Part shown: piece by piece, positions 19,195 through 32,000 of the stretch | Layout: every line of letters begins with the position of its first letter | How positions within the stretch are numbered: the first letter of the stretch is position 1 | Assembly (NCBI GenBank): GCA_951812855.1 | Contig: OX638337.1 | Coordinates: 300,001 to 332,000 of the forward strand | Length of the DNA: 32,000 nt | Direction of reading: 5' to 3' | From: an uncultured Lentisphaeria bacterium | Lineage (GTDB): Bacteria; Verrucomicrobiota; Lentisphaeria; JABSQK01; JAJFLO01 | Program-made: the position numbers and the translations under genes | The notes under the pieces: generated by a model | Databases searched by the model: none | Seen by the model: the letters and a program-made list of their open reading frames with translations, nothing else | Told to the model about the DNA's origin: nothing

Positions 19195-22100
19195 TTACTT
19201 ATCCCTTGCTCGAAAAATATTGCGTAAAGACGCCTCCCATTTTGGTTCCTGAATAGTTCCCGTTAATCGTCTTTCGAGTAAAATTACAAATGGATCAATG
19301 ACCTTCGGAAGCAATTTTGTAAATTGTCCGAAAAATGGTTTTAACGGTTCAGCTATGACCTGAAAATCAAGCAGGTGTGAACTCAGACCGTAATTCCCTC
19401 GTGCTGAAATCGCAATTAAATTACCATTTGTTCTAAAATCGGGCAATTCAACTTTCTCACCTTTAAAATTTAAATTGCTCTTAAAACTGGTGATTTTTCC
19501 CAGATCGTTTTTAGGTAATACTCTTCCAATTATCGCTTTACTGTTTAGCATACTCAAAAAATCTGATATTATAGGAACCTGCCACAGGTCTCCGTCATCC
19601 ACGATTATTTTTCCATTGCCATCGAATAGTACAACTGGGTTGCTATTATCAAAATCAACATCGATTTTACAACTTAATTTACCCGCTTTTATGTCTGAAT
19701 CTTCACCCTTTTGGTGGCTGATTAAATCACCAAAATTGACATCGAGAAATGTTAACCAGATTTTACCGGCTTCATCGGTGAAATTATATGAAATATCTCC
19801 GGTCGTCGTTCCACCAAACAGATTCCCGGTAATCCCGGTCAAGTTTAACTCATCAAATTCATTGACTATCGATGCAGTAATATTATTAACCGGAAAATCA
19901 TATACCTTATTCTTTTCTGAGAATATAGAAATTCTAACCATGTTATCAGATAGAATCCCTGAAGTTGTAACTGTATTAAATTCTGCCATAGGAATAACCG
20001 CTTTATCTAATTGATTTTGAAAAAGCCATGATGATCCCTGCTGGTTATAATTCCCTGTGACATTGGTACCGTTTAAATTACCCATCGAAAATTTCTTAAA
20101 CGAATAATCCCCGAAAATATCGTTATTATGATAAGTAATTCCCAGATTCAGATCAATTAACTCAGTATCTTCAAGACAAATAAATTGCGGTGTTGCCAGA
20201 TCTAACTGCAGCCTTCTATCTGTATAAGTGCTGTCAAACACAATATCATTACAAATCCCCTGAGTTGGATAATGAAAAAATTCGTTAGCGGCACCCGATA
20301 ATGAAAGATTTCCATTTTCTATAATACAACTGCTCTTAATATCTATTACGTGAAATGTTGCATTATCAAACGCTTCTTCTACAGTCAAATCAGCATCAAT
20401 TCGATCACCGTTTAGACTGAAATTCAATTTAATCGTTTCAAAGAGTGTCTGATACAACCGGGCATTCATTATTTCAGTGCTTGACGATAATGTTTTCCCG
20501 TCAAATTTACTTTCAGCAGTAATGCTGTCTGCCTTCCAGTCGTCGTATGACAGGGTGTTGGAATGGGATAAAATTGCAATTGATTGATCTTTGCAGATCC
20601 CCTCAAACAGGGAATCATTTATTTCAAATCCTAATCCATAAACTGATTTGGCATTTCCGTTTATGGTTGAGGCTTCTGATACAGATTCTATTTCTAAAAA
20701 CGCATTTTCAACAGTCCAGTCATTAAACTGACATGAGCGAATTTCAGCAGTCGTATTCGTTTGTAATTTATCAATATGTAATTTTGCGGTAAACTCATTG
20801 ATAAACACATTTTGACAGTCCAAATCACCCCCCTCCAGATCAATTGCAATATTCAAGCGAGGATCACCTTTTGTAAAGAATCTTCCCTGTGCTTTGACAG
20901 AAGGATTCTGATGAAAATAAAAACCACGTTCTATCAGGAAATTTTCCAGTTTAGGATTAAATAATTTAAGTAAAGACGGCGGATATAAATTACTTTCTAT
21001 ATCAAATAATAATTCACTTCTGCTGCCGTGTATCGCCAAGTGCCCGGATGCCGTTGTGTTTTTACTGACAATATCCCAATTATCGATTAAAATGAGAGAA
21101 TTTATATAATCAACGATTACGTGACCTGCAGCTTGTTCAACCGTTACACCATTATATTGAAAATTAGTCATCCGCACATCAGCATCAATAACCAGCCCAT
21201 GATTTGGAAATTTATTATTATAAACCAATTCAAGGTCAATATGAGGTTTATCTTTTTCGTTCCAATTGAACGGCATCCAAATATTCTTATAACTTTTTAT
21301 AAATCGTTCGTCATTGGTAAACGATGTTATAAAGTCTGGTTTACCATCGACAGTGGCCTGAATCATCAATTCTCCGGACTCAATATTAAATGTGCCATTC
21401 AGTAATATTTGAACATCAGATTCGAGTCGAATTATTGTATCCGAAAGTTCACACTGTTTGTCAAACAACTTTATCTGCCCGTTCATCGATGCGATCGTCT
21501 CATCCATTATCGTTATATTATTGACGTTTAGATCCATCACAATATCCCAATTGATTGGACTTGAAATCGGCGAAGGATTTAACCTTAATGTCGCAATAAG
21601 CGGCTTTTTCTTGAAAAGAGGAATAAATTCACTGTAATCTTTAAGTAGATTTGGAGAAATAACTTTGAGAATTTTATGTGGATAAGCCGTTAACGAAAAT
21701 TGACCGGAAATTTCCTCCCGCTCCAGATCCCAAATTGCTTCACCTCCAATATATTCCTGATTATCCATTTCCAGCTTTACATCTGAGATTGCCAGAATAT
21801 TCTGTGTGAAATCTCCTTTTAAGGTTAATTTCTCAATGTTTAGGCCTCGATATAAAAATTGATTGAAATTCACTCCCAACGATACACGACTGTCCAATAG
21901 ACGTGCCACCGGCAATTGAACCATTAGCGTAATTCCGCTTTGAGATAAATTACTGTCAGGATGGATAAATTGTTGAAATGAAGTTAATCCATTTGTTATC
22001 TCTTCAGAAATAAATGGAAGCCAATTATTACAGGTAAACGGGAGAAGTTTTATACGCTTCTGTTTCATTCTCAGCAATTCCTCATCGGTTGGTTTGATGA

Positions 22101-22596
22101 CATCGCCCTGAATGGTAATTTTAACCCCGCCAATAAAACCGGAAAAAGAGTCTATGCTGATTTTATCTTCAAAATTACGGAAGGCAAAATGGACATTCGT
22201 TAATCCCAAAGAATGATAACTATTATCTGCATTACGTTCAAACGGCACATGGAGATTACAGTTTTTACCATAAAGACTGGCAATAACAACGTCTCCTTTA
22301 ATTAAACGCCTCAACATTAATTTCAATTGAATTTTATCCGCAGTAACTATTGTTAACTGACTATGGCTATAATCAGTTATCTTAATGTCTTCTAAAGTAA
22401 TTCCGTCAATTAATCCAAAGCGAATATATTTGGCTTCTGCAGCGATCCCCTGATTTTGGATCTGGTCCCATATCCAGCTTTGAACGAATTGCGGCAACCC
22501 CTTCACCTGCCAGTAAAATAGAACAGATACAAAAAAAACTGCAGATAAAAAAAATATGAATATCAGCTTCTTAATTATTTTCATTTTCTGAATCAC
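19195..22596 (-). CDS. AsmA/TamB-like giant envelope protein (N-terminal membrane anchor, long beta-rich body)
   Basis: Single N-terminal TM helix (LIFIFFLSAVFFVSVLFYW). A 1133-aa repetitive beta-strand-like sequence. The C-terminal block NGNLIAISARGNYGLSSHLLDFQVIAEP...RRLTGTIQEPKW resembles AsmA-like C-terminal domains that end in a G-T-hydrophobic-x-x-P-K motif. Family recognised by overall pattern only. Confidence 0.6.
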   Translation of the reverse strand: MIQKMKIIKKLIFIFFLSAVFFVSVLFYWQVKGLPQFVQSWIWDQIQNQGIAAEAKYIRFGLIDGITLEDIKITDYSHSQLTIVTADKIQLKLMLRRLIKGDVVIASLYGKNCNLHVPFERNADNSYHSLGLTNVHFAFRNFEDKISIDSFSGFIGGVKITIQGDVIKPTDEELLRMKQKRIKLLPFTCNNWLPFISEEITNGLTSFQQFIHPDSNLSQSGITLMVQLPVARLLDSRVSLGVNFNQFLYRGLNIEKLTLKGDFTQNILAISDVKLEMDNQEYIGGEAIWDLEREEISGQFSLTAYPHKILKVISPNLLKDYSEFIPLFKKKPLIATLRLNPSPISSPINWDIVMDLNVNNITIMDETIASMNGQIKLFDKQCELSDTIIRLESDVQILLNGTFNIESGELMIQATVDGKPDFITSFTNDERFIKSYKNIWMPFNWNEKDKPHIDLELVYNNKFPNHGLVIDADVRMTNFQYNGVTVEQAAGHVIVDYINSLILIDNWDIVSKNTTASGHLAIHGSRSELLFDIESNLYPPSLLKLFNPKLENFLIERGFYFHQNPSVKAQGRFFTKGDPRLNIAIDLEGGDLDCQNVFINEFTAKLHIDKLQTNTTAEIRSCQFNDWTVENAFLEIESVSEASTINGNAKSVYGLGFEINDSLFEGICKDQSIAILSHSNTLSYDDWKADSITAESKFDGKTLSSSTEIMNARLYQTLFETIKLNFSLNGDRIDADLTVEEAFDNATFHVIDIKSSCIIENGNLSLSGAANEFFHYPTQGICNDIVFDSTYTDRRLQLDLATPQFICLEDTELIDLNLGITYHNNDIFGDYSFKKFSMGNLNGTNVTGNYNQQGSSWLFQNQLDKAVIPMAEFNTVTTSGILSDNMVRISIFSEKNKVYDFPVNNITASIVNEFDELNLTGITGNLFGGTTTGDISYNFTDEAGKIWLTFLDVNFGDLISHQKGEDSDIKAGKLSCKIDVDFDNSNPVVLFDGNGKIIVDDGDLWQVPIISDFLSMLNSKAIIGRVLPKNDLGKITSFKSNLNFKGEKVELPDFRTNGNLIAISARGNYGLSSHLLDFQVIAEPLKPFFGQFTKLLPKVIDPFVILLERRLTGTIQEPKWEASLRNIFRARDK

Positions 22597-27737: not shown

Positions 27738-28292
27738 ATGAAACCAGCTCGTTTAATACATTTATTCTTCATCATCCTATCCATATTCGTATCATCTTGC
27801 AGCCACTACCGCTTAGTCAGGACAGATCAAAGTAAAATTCAATCGATCGCTATAGCTGAGCCAGATAATCACACCAATGAACCTCGGTTATCCAGCTACC
27901 TTAAAAATAATCTCGCAGAATTATTTACATTTGACGGGGGTATAAAGGTTGTAAGAAATACTAATCAGGCAAACTGCATTATTAATACTAAAATTTTATC
28001 CCTGGATACTCGAGGAATTGGTGAAAAACGGATGAGTTCAAATGATGATGATCAACGAAAATATCGATCAACAATATTCAGGACATCAGTAATTATTGAA
28101 TATGCTGTCTCATGTCCAAATGACAATTCTTCACTACATCAAACACATCGCATCACGGGTTATGCTGATTTTACAGAATTGGTTGACATTGATATTGTTC
28201 GAAAGGATGGATTAAACAGGGCAATCAATGATGCATGCTTAAAAATTGTAAATAATACTATCAACACCGATGAATTAACATCTGCCAGGTGA
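27738..28292 (+). CDS. LptE-like LPS-assembly lipoprotein
   Basis: I place the start at the ATG at 27738 (MKPARLIHLFFIILSIFVSSC, lipobox VSSC). The mature sequence CSHYRLV...IQSIAIAEPDNHTNEPRLSSYLKNNL...GGIKVV follows the non-proteobacterial LptE pattern (C-G/S-Y-x-L, then I..I.V..F.N.T.EP.L). Adjacent to the BamD-like gene. Confidence 0.5.
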   Translation: MKPARLIHLFFIILSIFVSSCSHYRLVRTDQSKIQSIAIAEPDNHTNEPRLSSYLKNNLAELFTFDGGIKVVRNTNQANCIINTKILSLDTRGIGEKRMSSNDDDQRKYRSTIFRTSVIIEYAVSCPNDNSSLHQTHRITGYADFTELVDIDIVRKDGLNRAINDACLKIVNNTINTDELTSAR

Positions 28293-28579
28293 ATCTGTAA
28301 ATTTTAATAAAATGGTATTTTAAAACCTTGCCATACCCGGCTAAAATTGAATCTCACCGACAGGTAAAATGATATGAGAAAGTCAGTCTATTCCTTATGC
28401 TGTAAGAAAAAGTTATATCACAGGAAACAGCCGAAGAACTAACATATAAAAATCAATACGTTATCTGTAATCATATTGATTTTTTTTCACACGTCTTATC
28501 GAATCTACAGTAAAATTTTTTGATGGGAGCCACACCAAAATTTTACCTTTTCTTTTAGAGTAATTTGCAGTTTCTATTT

Positions 28580-30070
28580 TTAAATATTTACCCTGCTCTT
28601 CAGGGTCAGCAAGCCAAATACAGTTAGTCCAAATGCATAAGCCGCTATAAAGAAACCAAATAGATATTTTTGTGTTTGGAAATAGAGAAGCAGGGTAATA
28701 AAACAATATAATCCAGATAATAACTCGATATATCCCGACTTAATATTATTTACTGCTATATATTGCCCGCGTTTCTTTTCAATGTTGCTACTGCCACTTT
28801 TGGGCGTACGAATAAAATCTGATTTTTCCCCTCTGATTCCTTCCAAAACAGCGTTGGCATTGTTTAAACACAACCCCGTCCCAACGACAAGCATTGCTGG
28901 AAAATGTGACAGTGAAAAGAAACCATTTTTAAGCACACATCCGCTGAGTGTATACATAATACAAGGAGCCACCGCAGCAAAAACAACTGTTGACCAGACT
29001 GCAGTCAGGATTAAATCAAATTCTGGCAACGGTGTCCATAACAACATTGGCATTGTCAGTATAAAGAGAATAGACATGAATAGTGAGACAGCATAATGAG
29101 TTAAATGTAAAAATGCCTCTGCTTTTTGCAGGATAGAAAATTTCTTGTCGGCAAATAATTGAGGCAAAATTTTTATTGCGGTTTCTATTGATCCTTTTGC
29201 CCATCGTTTTTGTTGACTTTTCAGAGCGGCAACGTTGTTTGGAACTTCCGCAGGACATTCCAAATCAAAGTCATATTGAATTTTATACCCCGCCATTTGA
29301 GCCCGATAAGATAAATCCAGATCTTCAGTCAAGGTATCACCTTGCCAACCTCCCCCATCTTTTATTGCTTCTTTTCTCCATATCCCTGCGGTACCATTAA
29401 AATTCATACATAAATTTGTATATCCTCTCGCCCCCTGTTCTGCAGTAAAATGACCATCAATACCAACACTTTGAGCACGAGTCAGCCAATTTTCTTTTTG
29501 ATTGTAATGCCCCCACCTTGCCTGAACGCAACCAATATCATCATGACCATCAATAAGCGCAACAGTTCTCTTTAAGAAGTGTTCCGGAATAATAAAATCC
29601 GAATCAAATATTGCAATATAATCACCTTTTGCCAAAGTTAATCCATGTGATAATGCACCCGCTTTAAAATCAATCCGGTCTTGTCTGCGAACCGCATAAA
29701 TATTAATATTATTACGTTGAACTTCGGTGATAGTTTCATTTATGAGATCAACGGTTTCATCTGTACTGTCATCGAGTACCTGTATTTCAAATCTATCATT
29801 GGGATAATCAATTGCCGCAACACTCCAAAGTAAACGGTGTACAACATCTAATTCATTATATATAGGCAACTGAATAGTGACAAAAGGATACTCATTACAT
29901 TCTCTATTGCGATTATAAACTTCAATCGTTTCATTGATTTTTCGACGTGCATTCTTCTGCTTCAGTATAAAAATTGCAATCATGATATAACAATGCAACC
30001 CATATACCATTAAACACAGTGTGCTTAATATATAGGAAGCGATTATAACAATATGAATGATATGGAACAT
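28580..30070 (-). CDS. membrane-integrated family 2 glycosyltransferase, processive type (CslA / cellulose-synthase / MGlcDG-synthase-like)
   Basis: D,D,D,QxxRW signature: IQVLDDSTDET, IAIFDSDF, TEDLDLSYR, QQKRWAKG. One or two N-terminal and at least 4 C-terminal hydrophobic helices. Confidence 0.85.
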   Translation of the reverse strand: MFHIIHIVIIASYILSTLCLMVYGLHCYIMIAIFILKQKNARRKINETIEVYNRNRECNEYPFVTIQLPIYNELDVVHRLLWSVAAIDYPNDRFEIQVLDDSTDETVDLINETITEVQRNNINIYAVRRQDRIDFKAGALSHGLTLAKGDYIAIFDSDFIIPEHFLKRTVALIDGHDDIGCVQARWGHYNQKENWLTRAQSVGIDGHFTAEQGARGYTNLCMNFNGTAGIWRKEAIKDGGGWQGDTLTEDLDLSYRAQMAGYKIQYDFDLECPAEVPNNVAALKSQQKRWAKGSIETAIKILPQLFADKKFSILQKAEAFLHLTHYAVSLFMSILFILTMPMLLWTPLPEFDLILTAVWSTVVFAAVAPCIMYTLSGCVLKNGFFSLSHFPAMLVVGTGLCLNNANAVLEGIRGEKSDFIRTPKSGSSNIEKKRGQYIAVNNIKSGYIELLSGLYCFITLLLYFQTQKYLFGFFIAAYAFGLTVFGLLTLKSRVNI

Positions 30071-30206
30071 TGTCAGGGTTTGAGATGATAGGTAAGGTAT
30101 AAGCAGTGATTAATTGATGATATGAATCCTTTGATTTCAGTCAGGATAAAAATCATCATTTTTTGTTCATCTCTTTAGCAGGAATTTTAAATTAACTATT
30201 TGCAAT

Positions 30207-31118
30207 TCAGCATTCACTGCACGAGGCACCGTAAGCGAAACATGAATAACACCGGTGATGGCCTAACATTACCCGAACTTTCATACTCTCATCCAATGTT
30301 TTTCCCAGATTATAGTTATTGTCATCATCAACTAAAGTGCATGCATAAATTCCTATTTCCCCATTTTTCTTCACTGCCATTTTACTGAAATTGCACATAA
30401 AGGAGTCTCGTTGATTTTGATTAAGACAGGTTGTCATACATTTCTCCGTAATCTGCGGAACATTTGGAATTGAGCCGGGCCGATGAAATTCTGGAAATAC
30501 GATGATGTGCAAATCTTCAGGAAGACCAACTGATTTGAATATTGGCAAATAGCTGTGATTAACTGCATTTACATCTTCGTTTTCAAGGCTCAAACGAGCA
30601 ATCGAAACATTAAACCCATAGCGATATAGTCGTCCCAATGTTTTCAGTGCTTTAATGAAATTACCTTTTCCTCTTGATTCATCATGTTTTTTTTCATCAG
30701 GGTGATCAAGACTAACTCTGAAACTAAGTGGATTGGCTTTTTCTCTTAGTGGAAGAATTTCACCAATCCGATTCATCAGAGGCTCTGCAGCATTGGTCAA
30801 AACCATACACGGACGATATGTTAATGCGCAGTCTAAAATTGACACAAATTCTGGGTTAACAAACGGTTCACCGCCTGTAAATGAAAATTTTTCTACTCCA
30901 AACTTTACTGCTTCATCTATTAATGGTTTTGCATCTTCTAATTCGATAGCGTTAATTCGATTATCACCCGGCTTCGAACCTTCCAGGCAAAAAGGGCATC
31001 TTAAATTGCAATTAGTTCCCGTGTGAAACCATAATTCCTTAAGGAGTTGTGGTTGTATATACCCTCGGGTATGTCCGTCGGATGTTTTTAACCAGCTATC
31101 GGTTTCAAGATGGTGCAT
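30207..31118 (-). CDS. radical SAM enzyme with a C-terminal Cys-rich (SPASM/ArsS-like) tail
   Basis: CxxxCxxC cluster motif GTNCNLRCPFCLEG. SAM-binding FSFTGGEPFVNPEF. C-terminal cysteines MCNFSKMAVKKNGEIGIYAC...HHRCYSCFAYGASCSEC (C-x2-C-x6-C-x2-C). The ATG overlaps the upstream FNR-like gene by 14 nt. Confidence 0.85.
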   Translation of the reverse strand: MHHLETDSWLKTSDGHTRGYIQPQLLKELWFHTGTNCNLRCPFCLEGSKPGDNRINAIELEDAKPLIDEAVKFGVEKFSFTGGEPFVNPEFVSILDCALTYRPCMVLTNAAEPLMNRIGEILPLREKANPLSFRVSLDHPDEKKHDESRGKGNFIKALKTLGRLYRYGFNVSIARLSLENEDVNAVNHSYLPIFKSVGLPEDLHIIVFPEFHRPGSIPNVPQITEKCMTTCLNQNQRDSFMCNFSKMAVKKNGEIGIYACTLVDDDNNYNLGKTLDESMKVRVMLGHHRCYSCFAYGASCSEC

Positions 31119-31776
31119 AAAAAAATACTTCCCTGTGAATTTTTGAAAAATCTACACCATTTTTTTCAAGCCACTCACTGACCTCATCGATCATTGCATC
31201 CAAACCACACAGGTAAAAGTGGAGGTCTGAATTTAACTTCAATGCTGGAAGAAAACCGGTAACCCGTCCACAATGATACTGGTGATCATTTTCTCTTGAT
31301 ACTGCGAGTTTAACCTCACATTGTGATTGCACCAGTTCTAACTCAAGAGCATCACAAACCCTTTTAACCCCGTATAAACAACACCCTGGAGGTCTTTCCG
31401 GGCACGAACGCATATAGGACAGAAATGGTGCGATTCCTGTTCCTGTAGCAATAAATATAAACGGGTCACCGGCTAAGTTTTGACCGGGTCGAAACCATCC
31501 GTAAGGCCTGGTATGAATGACGTGATCGCCTGCTTTGAGTTTGGATAACCAATTACTTAACTCACCACCGGGCAATTTTTGAATAAGAAGGCGAAGACCC
31601 GTTTCAGAGGTTCCTGACGCAATGCTATATGGACGAGATTGGGATTGATCTGCATTAAAAATTGAAATCGAATCACCCGGTTGAAATTCCATTTCGTTTC
31701 GTTCAATTATCAGTTCAAAGACAAGTGGAGATTTCCATTCAATCCGGACAACTGCTGATGAATAATTTACTTCCAT
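31105..31776 (-). CDS. ferredoxin-NADP+ reductase-family FAD/NAD(P)H oxidoreductase
   Basis: FAD-binding RPYSIAS (RxYS motif) and GGELSNWL. NAD(P)-binding FIFIATGTGIAPFLS. Late YLCG block. GAGG lies 8 nt upstream of the ATG. Confidence 0.85.
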   Translation of the reverse strand: MEVNYSSAVVRIEWKSPLVFELIIERNEMEFQPGDSISIFNADQSQSRPYSIASGTSETGLRLLIQKLPGGELSNWLSKLKAGDHVIHTRPYGWFRPGQNLAGDPFIFIATGTGIAPFLSYMRSCPERPPGCCLYGVKRVCDALELELVQSQCEVKLAVSRENDHQYHCGRVTGFLPALKLNSDLHFYLCGLDAMIDEVSEWLEKNGVDFSKIHREVFFYAPS

Positions 31777-31867
31777 TAATTTACCTCTGATCAGTAAAAC
31801 TTACAATTATTGCACATCGTGTGATCACTGCAAAATTATTACCTAAATTCCCGGTTTCATACTGTAA

Positions 31868-32000
31868 TCAACAACAGGATGCACCTGATTTTCCTTTTGA
31901 ACTATCCACGGAAGAATCAGGTCGGGAACAATCAAATAAACCATAATGGACCGAACGATCACCAATAATCTGAAAATGTTCCTTCAACCGTGTCCTCTCC
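31868..32000 (-). CDS. C-terminal 43 codons of a gene running off the window; resembles the C-terminus of arsenite S-adenosylmethionine methyltransferase (ArsM/AS3MT)
   Basis: My own translation of the minus strand gives ERTRLKEHFQIIGDRSVHYGLFDCSRPDSSVDSSKGKSGASCC*, with the stop at 31868-31870. The R[FL]..HF.[IV].GD.S.H[YF]G[IL]F..C block and the terminal Cys-Cys tail are features I recall from ArsM/AS3MT C-termini. The fragment is very short and the match is memory-based. Confidence 0.3.
   Translation of the reverse strand, partial: ERTRLKEHFQIIGDRSVHYGLFDCSRPDSSVDSSKGKSGASCC

Follow-up and report, generated by a model that had tools for sequence, protein, structure and literature searches.

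To our knowledge, ArsS and ArsL are the only radical S-adenosylmethionine (SAM) enzymes that make carbon-arsenic (C-As) bonds. ArsS adds a 5'-deoxyadenosyl group to dimethylarsenite (10.64898/2026.04.29.721666; PMC13598754), in a reaction reported to be redox-neutral (PMC13598754). ArsL, the arsinothricin radical SAM enzyme (NF040542), which works with ArsM, carries the canonical CxxxCxxC motif and cleaves a different SAM bond (10.1101/2024.02.01.577332); its C-terminal cysteine triad binds As(III) (bioRxiv 10.1101/2024.02.01.577332; 10.64898/2026.04.29.721666). Here we describe a locus at one end of a 32,000-nucleotide stretch of DNA from an uncultured Lentisphaeria bacterium (assembly GCA_951812855.1, contig OX638337.1, positions 300,001 to 332,000; hereafter the window), where the genes for an ArsM-type methyltransferase, an FNR-type flavoprotein and a radical SAM protein (rSAM) follow one another on the minus strand. 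The locus points to a third family of C-As bond-forming radical SAM enzymes. We favor, with a probability of roughly 0.6, the reading that rSAM is an ArsS-like enzyme that forms a C-As bond and is primed by its own NAD(P)H reductase, in an operon with ArsM; the operon probably marks an unstudied route to carbon-arsenic compounds in anaerobic bacteria.

The family is of interest through its tie to ArsM, by adjacency and by natural fusions, in largely anaerobic sediment and marine lineages whose organoarsenic synthesis has barely been studied; the context is set by the steps that follow ArsS and by the question of where arsenolipids, arsenocholine and arsenobetaine come from. ArsM, FNR and rSAM would make up a compact three-gene system with a candidate physiological reductant, a component that in vitro reconstitutions of radical SAM enzymes usually lack. 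The initial annotation of this DNA had seen in the three genes a candidate organoarsenical module with a built-in reductase, and this interpretation is supported, each computational refutation test that was run having come out in its favor.

Relation of the radical SAM protein to ArsS and ArsL

As reference we used the PGAP-annotated ArsS from an Acinetobacter portensis plasmid. BLASTP aligns rSAM with this protein at 25% identity over 307 columns (E 9e-11), and hhalign gives a probability of 97.3%. Both are about 300 amino acids (aa) long and carry an N-terminal CNLxCxxC motif, which in rSAM reads CNLRCPFC (C37/C41/C44). Five C-terminal cysteines can be aligned between them, including a tail CxxC-x6-C (rSAM/ArsS: FMC/VMC, YAC/YDC, CYSC/CYGC, GASC/GSSC); in rSAM these are C242, C260, C290, C293 and C300, and the protein ends ...HHRCYSCFAYGASCSEC. 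The ArsS-like Cys-rich tail proposed in the initial annotation is thus recovered by alignment, HRCYSCFA-YGASC pairing with DHCYGCTAGQGSSC of ArsS. Across 43 divergent representatives of the family aligned with one ArsS, C37, C41, C44, C242, C260 and C290 are cysteine in all 44 sequences, and C293 and C300 in 42; a further, clade-specific cysteine, C227, is present in 27 of the 44 and absent from ArsS. On this evidence rSAM is a remote ArsS homologue with the same cysteine architecture, lying outside the curated ArsS family as a member of an unmodelled sister family.

An ArsL-type enzyme is ruled out by architecture and tail motif. In ArsL, of about 440 aa, the cluster motif occupies residues 209-216 and the tail reads RCCLKC, whereas rSAM has 303 aa, the motif at residues 37-44 and the tail RCYSCFAxGASCSE, with no RCCLKC; NF040542 was not among its best NCBIfam matches. 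Pfam recognized only Radical_SAM in the protein. The best NCBIfam model was that of the Rv1681 (MoeX) family, NF049973, with 86.7 bits against a cutoff of 380 over residues 28-175; this match covers the radical SAM core without extending to the C-terminus, and the Rv1681 family itself has no established function. All NCBIfam matches fell far under cutoff and were confined to the core, so that rSAM does not score best to an unrelated characterized subfamily, and as judged from these scans no curated model covers the family. AlphaFold gave a confident model (pLDDT 84, pTM 0.87). Its best Foldseek neighbors belong to the SPASM/twitch class (SkfB, SuiB, BlsE, MoaA and anSME, TM 0.5-0.6), and no close relative of solved structure was found among them. 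Four PDB sequence matches, 9dfu, 9dfn, 9dgw and 9dfw, were considered as arsenic radical SAM enzymes and set aside, as their Foldseek descriptions are those of fungal viperin-like enzymes; the literature yielded nothing under these codes.

The family comprises 3771 homologues, with 62-87% identity among the 120 best listed. Those named by their source are mostly called 'radical SAM protein', some JGI entries carrying generic MoaA- or AslB-type names, and no earlier description of the family was found in the literature that was searched. At least 585 species genomes carry it, according to a pattern scan of one genome per species; the carriers include Lentisphaerota, Kiritimatiellota/Pontiella, Desulfuromonadales, Planctomycetota, Omnitrophota, Hydrogenedentota, some Gammaproteobacteria and Ca. 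Uabimicrobium. Among cultured carriers are Desulfuromusa kysingii DSM 7343, Deferribacter thermophilus and Pontiellaceae isolates. In contrast to ArsS, the family occurs for the most part in anaerobic PVC, Desulfuromonadales, Planctomycetota and candidate-phylum lineages, and in about a third of its loci it is paired with a dedicated, overlapping FNR flavoprotein. An unannotated copy of 54% identity lies on plasmid pHP-187 of Marinobacter adhaerens HP15 (L083:9001-9886); it is a frameshifted pseudogene, whose frame fails after about residue 130 and contains several stops, and neither ArsM nor FNR is found near it.

The methyltransferase, the flavoprotein and their association with rSAM

Only the last 43 codons of the upstream open reading frame (ORF) lie in the window (...HFQIIGDRSVHYGLFDC...GASCC, then the stop), and on these the initial annotation had based its call of an ArsM-like tail. 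The call held for the full gene, which on the parent contig (L001:8848-9909) encodes 353 aa. The protein matches the Chlamydomonas ArsM of PDB 5evj with 370 bits (E 1e-109, residues 3-346) and the Cyanidioschyzon ArsM, CmArsM, of PDB 4fr0 with 343 bits over its whole length. The four conserved arsenic-binding cysteines of ArsM, which we take to be C44, C72, C174 and C224 of CmArsM, are matched in the alignment by its C30/C31, C58, C153 and C203. The cutoffs of the bacterial NCBIfam ArsM models were not reached (PRK11873, 197 bits against 263; AsSugarArsM, 127 bits against 400); the protein resembles the algal-type ArsM seen in the solved structures more than it does these models. Despite the sub-cutoff scores, the upstream methyltransferase is by homology a bona fide ArsM.

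The flavoprotein carries the motifs RPYSIAS and GTGIAPF and is recognized by Pfam as FAD_binding_6 (33.3 bits, cutoff 21.1) and NAD_binding_1 (34.5 bits, cutoff 22); RPYS and ATGTGIAPF show little or no variation across 18 aligned flavoproteins. In the PDB, its best match is 1krh, the reductase part of BenC. Like the BenC-type reductases, the protein is an FAD/NAD(P)H module of two domains in which the motifs RxYS and GTGIAPF occur; unlike BenC, it has no [2Fe-2S] ferredoxin domain, and neither the Pfam scan nor the PDB comparison revealed any other iron-sulfur domain.

All neighborhood counts refer to the best 80 genome loci. The FNR gene lies directly upstream of rSAM in 28 of these, and in 24 of the 28 the FNR stop overlaps the rSAM start by 8-20 nucleotides (nt), so that the adjacency noted in the initial annotation is a conserved one. 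It is also reciprocal. Metagenome contigs were scanned with the FNR alignment: all six relatives at 47% identity or more with downstream sequence were followed by rSAM, as against none of the 73 at 36% identity or less. Because no member of this FNR subfamily was found anywhere but directly upstream of an rSAM gene of this family, we regard it as a dedicated rSAM partner, and the nearly constant overlap of stop and start gives the pattern of fixed-ratio subunits. Fused or dedicated flavin partners are known for few radical SAM enzymes, eukaryotic TYW1 being an example (PMC8941971). Other flavoproteins also occur beside this family and its relatives: a DedA-FAD oxidoreductase directly follows the canonical arsS, and a Pyr_redox domain is fused to rSAM in P0174. 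Association with a flavoprotein, by adjacency or by fusion, recurs more widely, and its FNR form is specific to this clade. No natural FNR-rSAM fusion was present among the 150 best representatives; one candidate, P0185, was rejected, its N-terminal 220 aa having no domain match and looking like a gene-calling artefact.

ArsM adjoins rSAM, on either side, in 31 of the 80 loci, and both ArsM and FNR are present in 14. Natural fusions strengthen this connection. When 1.84 billion representatives were searched with a profile and the matches scanned with Pfam and NCBIfam, ArsM was found fused to rSAM in both orders (ArsM-rSAM in P0122 and P0137; rSAM-ArsM in P0123 and P0241), with ArsM moieties 51-58% identical to the ArsM of the window. 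The RefSeq genome of an isolate, Deferribacter thermophilus, encodes a protein from the P0123 cluster that is nearly identical to P0123 and equally long, and fusions of the P0241 type occur in Brocadiales. Fusion in both orders constitutes Rosetta-stone evidence that rSAM and ArsM act in one pathway. The same search found rSAM fused to TIGR04282 (P0160), to metallophosphoesterase domains (P0161 and P0162) and to an HD/YfbR-like domain (P0169).

Further recurrent neighbors are a DedA-MerA-like flavoprotein fusion (DedA-Pyr_redox; 19 of 80 loci), an extracytoplasmic function (ECF) sigma factor (15), DUF547 (10), an AhpD-like protein (10), MsrB (8), an MTA-phosphorylase-like (MTAP-like) protein (8) and a DUF2064-GT2 fusion (8). 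The MTAP-like example that was scanned scores 273 bits to TIGR01694, just under the cutoff of 274.85. Two scanned examples of the DUF2064-GT2 fusion match both models named 'arsenosugar biosynthesis glycosyltransferase', TIGR04282 (215 and 220 bits, cutoff 134) and TIGR04283 (248 and 257 bits, cutoff 182). Counting as cassette markers ArsM, DedA-flavoprotein or DedA alone, DUF547, MTAP-like and DUF2064-GT2, at least one marker is present in 47 of the 80 loci; in the window and its contig, ArsM is the only one. The arsS cassette of the A. portensis plasmid consists of an ECF sigma factor, thioredoxin, arsS, a DedA-FAD oxidoreductase, DUF547, TIGR04283, TIGR04282, a methyltransferase and MTAP. 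Because this canonical cassette has the same parts list, with the methyltransferase of ArsM type, the rSAM family occupies the ArsS slot.

Three related arrangements were observed in passing. On plasmid p546-1 of Roseomonas haemaphysalidis (L084:6013-12973), an rSAM relative of 35% identity lies in a different cassette, in the order TIGR04282, DUF547, a second radical SAM protein (459 aa, weakly TrsS/Tes-like), the rSAM relative, a phosphonate-type ABC transporter and a metallophosphoesterase, with no ArsM annotated. A Burkholderia thailandensis plasmid (L165) carries TIGR04283, TIGR04282 and MTA phosphorylase together with ECF sigma/anti-sigma, thioredoxin/CcdA and DedA-FAD oxidoreductase genes, and the same genes are found on B. 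glumae plasmids. No rSAM or ArsM lies within 7 kb of this Burkholderia cassette, and the 'arsenosugar' naming of TIGR04282 and TIGR04283 consequently rests on association. At L030:3332-4180 and in six related Kiritimatiellia loci, a conserved protein of 250-280 aa is encoded between the ECF sigma and rSAM genes; it has no Pfam or NCBIfam match and is probably an anti-sigma factor.

Proposed chemistry and alternative explanations

The operon, inside which the window ends, comprises, in order, a YyaL-like thioredoxin-fold protein, ArsM, the FNR flavoprotein, the ArsS-like rSAM and possibly a membrane GT2 glycosyltransferase. In the scheme that we infer for the substrate, the product, the SAM bond cleaved, and the direction and target of electron flow, ArsM would methylate As(III) to methyl- or dimethylarsenite, and the trivalent arsenical would be held on the conserved C-terminal cysteines of rSAM, for which ArsL provides the precedent. 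The [4Fe-4S] cluster of rSAM would then cleave SAM reductively, and addition of the SAM-derived radical to arsenic would create the new C-As bond. As the recurrent partners of rSAM process nucleosides, this radical is most likely the 5'-deoxyadenosyl known from ArsS; the product would then be a 5'-deoxy-5'-arsinoyl-adenosine. At other loci, this nucleoside may be handled by the MTA-phosphorylase-like enzyme and the TIGR04282/TIGR04283 transferases. The coupled flavoprotein would pass electrons from NAD(P)H to the iron-sulfur center(s) of rSAM, replacing the usual FNR-plus-flavodoxin chain. Unlike in the FNR/flavodoxin system that reduces radical SAM enzymes, no flavodoxin or ferredoxin gene is adjacent, and the FNR of the window is coupled to its presumed client.

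Several observations weigh against this reading. The rSAM of the window scores 46.2 bits to the ArsS model, TIGR04167, against a cutoff of 300 (residues 22-178 on model positions 3-157), and ten divergent family members reach at most 72 bits. DUF3641 (PF12345), the domain that accompanies Radical_SAM in ArsS, gave no match even at E ≤ 10 in the window rSAM, in P0160 or in the Roseomonas homologue; the canonical ArsS scores 192 bits in the same scan. The ArsS likeness claimed in the initial annotation therefore stands as regards the tail cysteines and remote homology, and does not extend to the curated family. Because rSAM fails both curated definitions of ArsS, the same function is not guaranteed. 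The neighborhoods are also uneven, with neither ArsM nor FNR within 8 kb in 35 of the 80 loci. In Desulfuromonadales (L005-L012, L017 and L038), FNR-rSAM is accompanied by TetR, AhpD-like (CMD), Crp and DedA-MerA-like genes and ArsM is absent within 8 kb, L019 being the sole locus of this group with ArsM nearby. In Omnitrophota and similar loci (L040, L052, L053, L055 and L059, and in part L081 and L082), rSAM is flanked by transaldolase, 6-phosphogluconolactonase and thiolase genes without arsenic or redox neighbors, which the arsenic model leaves unexplained. In the window itself, ORF listing and domain scans found no TIGR04282 or TIGR04283, MTAP or other ars genes. With regard to the electron supply, free FNR-type flavins are normally too weakly reducing for a radical SAM cluster unless a ferredoxin or flavodoxin mediates, and a stoichiometric, coupled reductase is not obviously needed if the chemistry is redox-neutral like that of ArsS. 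As ArsS chemistry is reported to be so (PMC13598754), the hard-wired reductase would serve as a primer or else indicate different, net-reductive chemistry, and for the same reason we only infer its reductase role.

The alternative that survives best, although we hold it to be unlikely, is that the flavoprotein is not the donor to the rSAM cluster. It could instead be a reductase or oxidase of substrate or product, handling pentavalent or trivalent organoarsenicals (compare ArsH with MAs(III)), or merely a co-expressed general flavin reductase. Its minimal 223-aa FNR module would suit such roles, being the size of Fre and LuxG, which are among its weak NCBIfam matches, and lacking an iron-sulfur domain; yet the subfamily occurs only beside rSAM, in the arrangement of fixed-ratio subunits described above. 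Similarly, ArsS needs no stoichiometric reductant (PMC13598754), but the flavoprotein accompanies rSAM even in Desulfuromonadales loci without ArsM, and in P0174 a different flavoprotein is fused directly to rSAM.

The dedicated, overlapping FNR gene contrasts with the redox-neutrality of ArsS (PMC13598754), and this, together with the deep divergence from ArsS (25% identity, no DUF3641, a semi-conserved C227), leads to a second and slightly less probable alternative, an arsenic module with chemistry other than that of ArsS. The enzyme could form a C-As bond of another kind, for instance by transferring a 3-amino-3-carboxypropyl group in the manner of ArsL, which sets the precedent for cleavage of a different SAM bond by a CxxxCxxC enzyme (10.1101/2024.02.01.577332), or catalyze a net-reductive reaction that uses one electron per turnover and yields, for instance, a trivalent adenosyl-dimethylarsine that ArsM could re-methylate. 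Either chemistry would explain the hard-wired reductase. ArsL-like chemistry is disfavored by the missing RCCLKC tail and an architecture unlike that of ArsL; more generally, the neighbors and fusion partners handle nucleosides or nucleotides (MTAP-like, HD/YfbR-like, metallophosphoesterase and CofC-like TIGR04282), which fits an adenosylated product.

A third alternative is improbable: that the locus is not dedicated to arsenic and is an ECF-sigma-controlled cassette for thiol, redox or metalloid stress acting on another substrate, such as sulfur, selenium or tellurium species or a SAM by-product, its ArsM-type enzyme being a broader metalloid or thiol methyltransferase. The many rSAM loci without ArsM, among them those of Desulfuromonadales and Omnitrophota, keep a non-arsenic role in play. 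The surroundings would also fit, with ECF sigma/anti-sigma, MsrB, AhpD-like, DsbH-like and YyaL-like thioredoxin-fold proteins and MerA-like disulfide reductases among the neighbors, and Burkholderia plasmids carry TIGR04282/TIGR04283 and MTAP with neither rSAM nor ArsM inside 7 kb. What this alternative does not accommodate is the in-frame fusion of ArsM to rSAM in both orders and in several lineages, nor an ArsM in the window that reaches 370 bits to a structurally characterized ArsM and keeps the four arsenic-binding cysteines. Moreover, dimethylarsenite is the substrate of ArsS, the sole characterized homologue that shares the cysteine set of rSAM (10.64898/2026.04.29.721666; PMC13598754).

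A role as a RiPP (a peptide made by the ribosome and then modified post-translationally) or cofactor maturase (SPASM families, MoaA, mycofactocin, NirJ and the like) is unlikely, since the maturase NCBIfam models score 27-61 bits against cutoffs of 265-850 and match the core only; Pfam found no SPASM match, and no precursor-peptide-type neighbors were seen in the loci examined.

The most specific form of the net-reductive idea is a long shot. In the FNR-coupled clade of anaerobes, methylated arsenic would undergo an NAD(P)H-wired, net-reductive adenosylation (or other radical alkylation), and the partner ArsM, in some genomes fused to rSAM, would re-methylate the resulting trivalent adenosyl-dimethylarsine. 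Were it true, it would offer a genetic entry to the trimethylarsonio-ribosides, which have long been postulated as precursors of arsenocholine and arsenobetaine, and rSAM would be a rare radical SAM enzyme with its own NAD(P)H-flavoprotein activase.

Locus layout and other genes of the window

Gene coordinates (Table 1) were taken from the ORF listing and a minus-strand reading of positions 31700-32000, which confirmed the layout of three co-directional genes, spacer and overlap given in the initial annotation. The stop of the partial upstream ORF (...HFQIIGDRSVHYGLFDCSRPDSSVDSSKGKSGASCC) occupies 31868-31870, upstream of the FNR ATG at 31776. All three are real genes and not chance ORFs: an exact-protein look-up found them on a 1.94-Mb ENA contig (L001), rSAM has its 3771 homologues, and 22 aligned homologues have their N-termini where rSAM starts, at the ATG at 31118.

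Table 1. Coordinates of the arsM-FNR-rSAM locus and the adjoining glycosyltransferase gene in the window
Feature	Position	Strand	Basis
arsM 3' end (43 codons + stop)	31868..32000	-	ORF reading; full gene on parent contig
arsM-FNR intergenic spacer, 91 nt	31777..31867	-	sequence reading
FNR-type flavoprotein gene, 223 aa	31105..31776	-	ORF listing, Pfam, NCBIfam
FNR stop / rSAM start overlap, 14 nt, putative translational coupling	31105..31118	-	ORF listing
Radical SAM (rSAM) gene, 303 aa, remote ArsS homologue	30207..31118	-	ORF listing, Pfam, NCBIfam, alignments
Membrane GT2 glycosyltransferase gene, cellulose-synthase/PgaC type	28580..30070 (or 30010)	-	ORF listing, ENA gene call

On the parent contig, the gene for the YyaL-like thioredoxin-fold protein (739 aa) lies directly upstream of arsM and ends 3 nt before it; farther upstream are an ECF sigma remnant and a DsbH-like thioredoxin protein. 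The remnant, an 84-aa ORF about 2.3 kb past the window end (L001:6342-6596), sits between the DsbH-like and YyaL-like genes, matches only ECF sigma region 2 and is apparently truncated; related loci have a full ECF sigma gene at this position, often with a putative anti-sigma factor.

No riboswitch or other RNA element was recognized in the 91-nt and 196-nt gaps, neither of which gave an Rfam match at E ≤ 1. The other window ORFs that were scanned are housekeeping genes (TrmD, lipoate ligase, FtsY, RibBA, enolase, amidase and GlnE), with no further arsenic genes among them. An exact look-up with the enolase, meant to widen the view of the surroundings, gave no match. On the minus strand at 19195-22596, there is an ORF of 1133 aa with no Pfam match at E ≤ 1e-5.

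The GT2 gene, which the initial annotation had not listed, lies downstream of rSAM in the same direction. Its start is ambiguous: the longest ORF, from 30070, encodes 496 aa and the ENA call, from 30010, 476 aa, and the homologues align from the 30010 start. A promoter and terminator scan of 28200-32000 gave nothing above shuffled-sequence expectation and no terminator-like site between rSAM and GT2. The two genes are possibly co-transcribed, and membership of GT2 in the module is uncertain: in four related loci (L004, L013, L015 and L035) it comes after rSAM and is co-directional with it, and in L026 and L027 it is encoded on the other strand.

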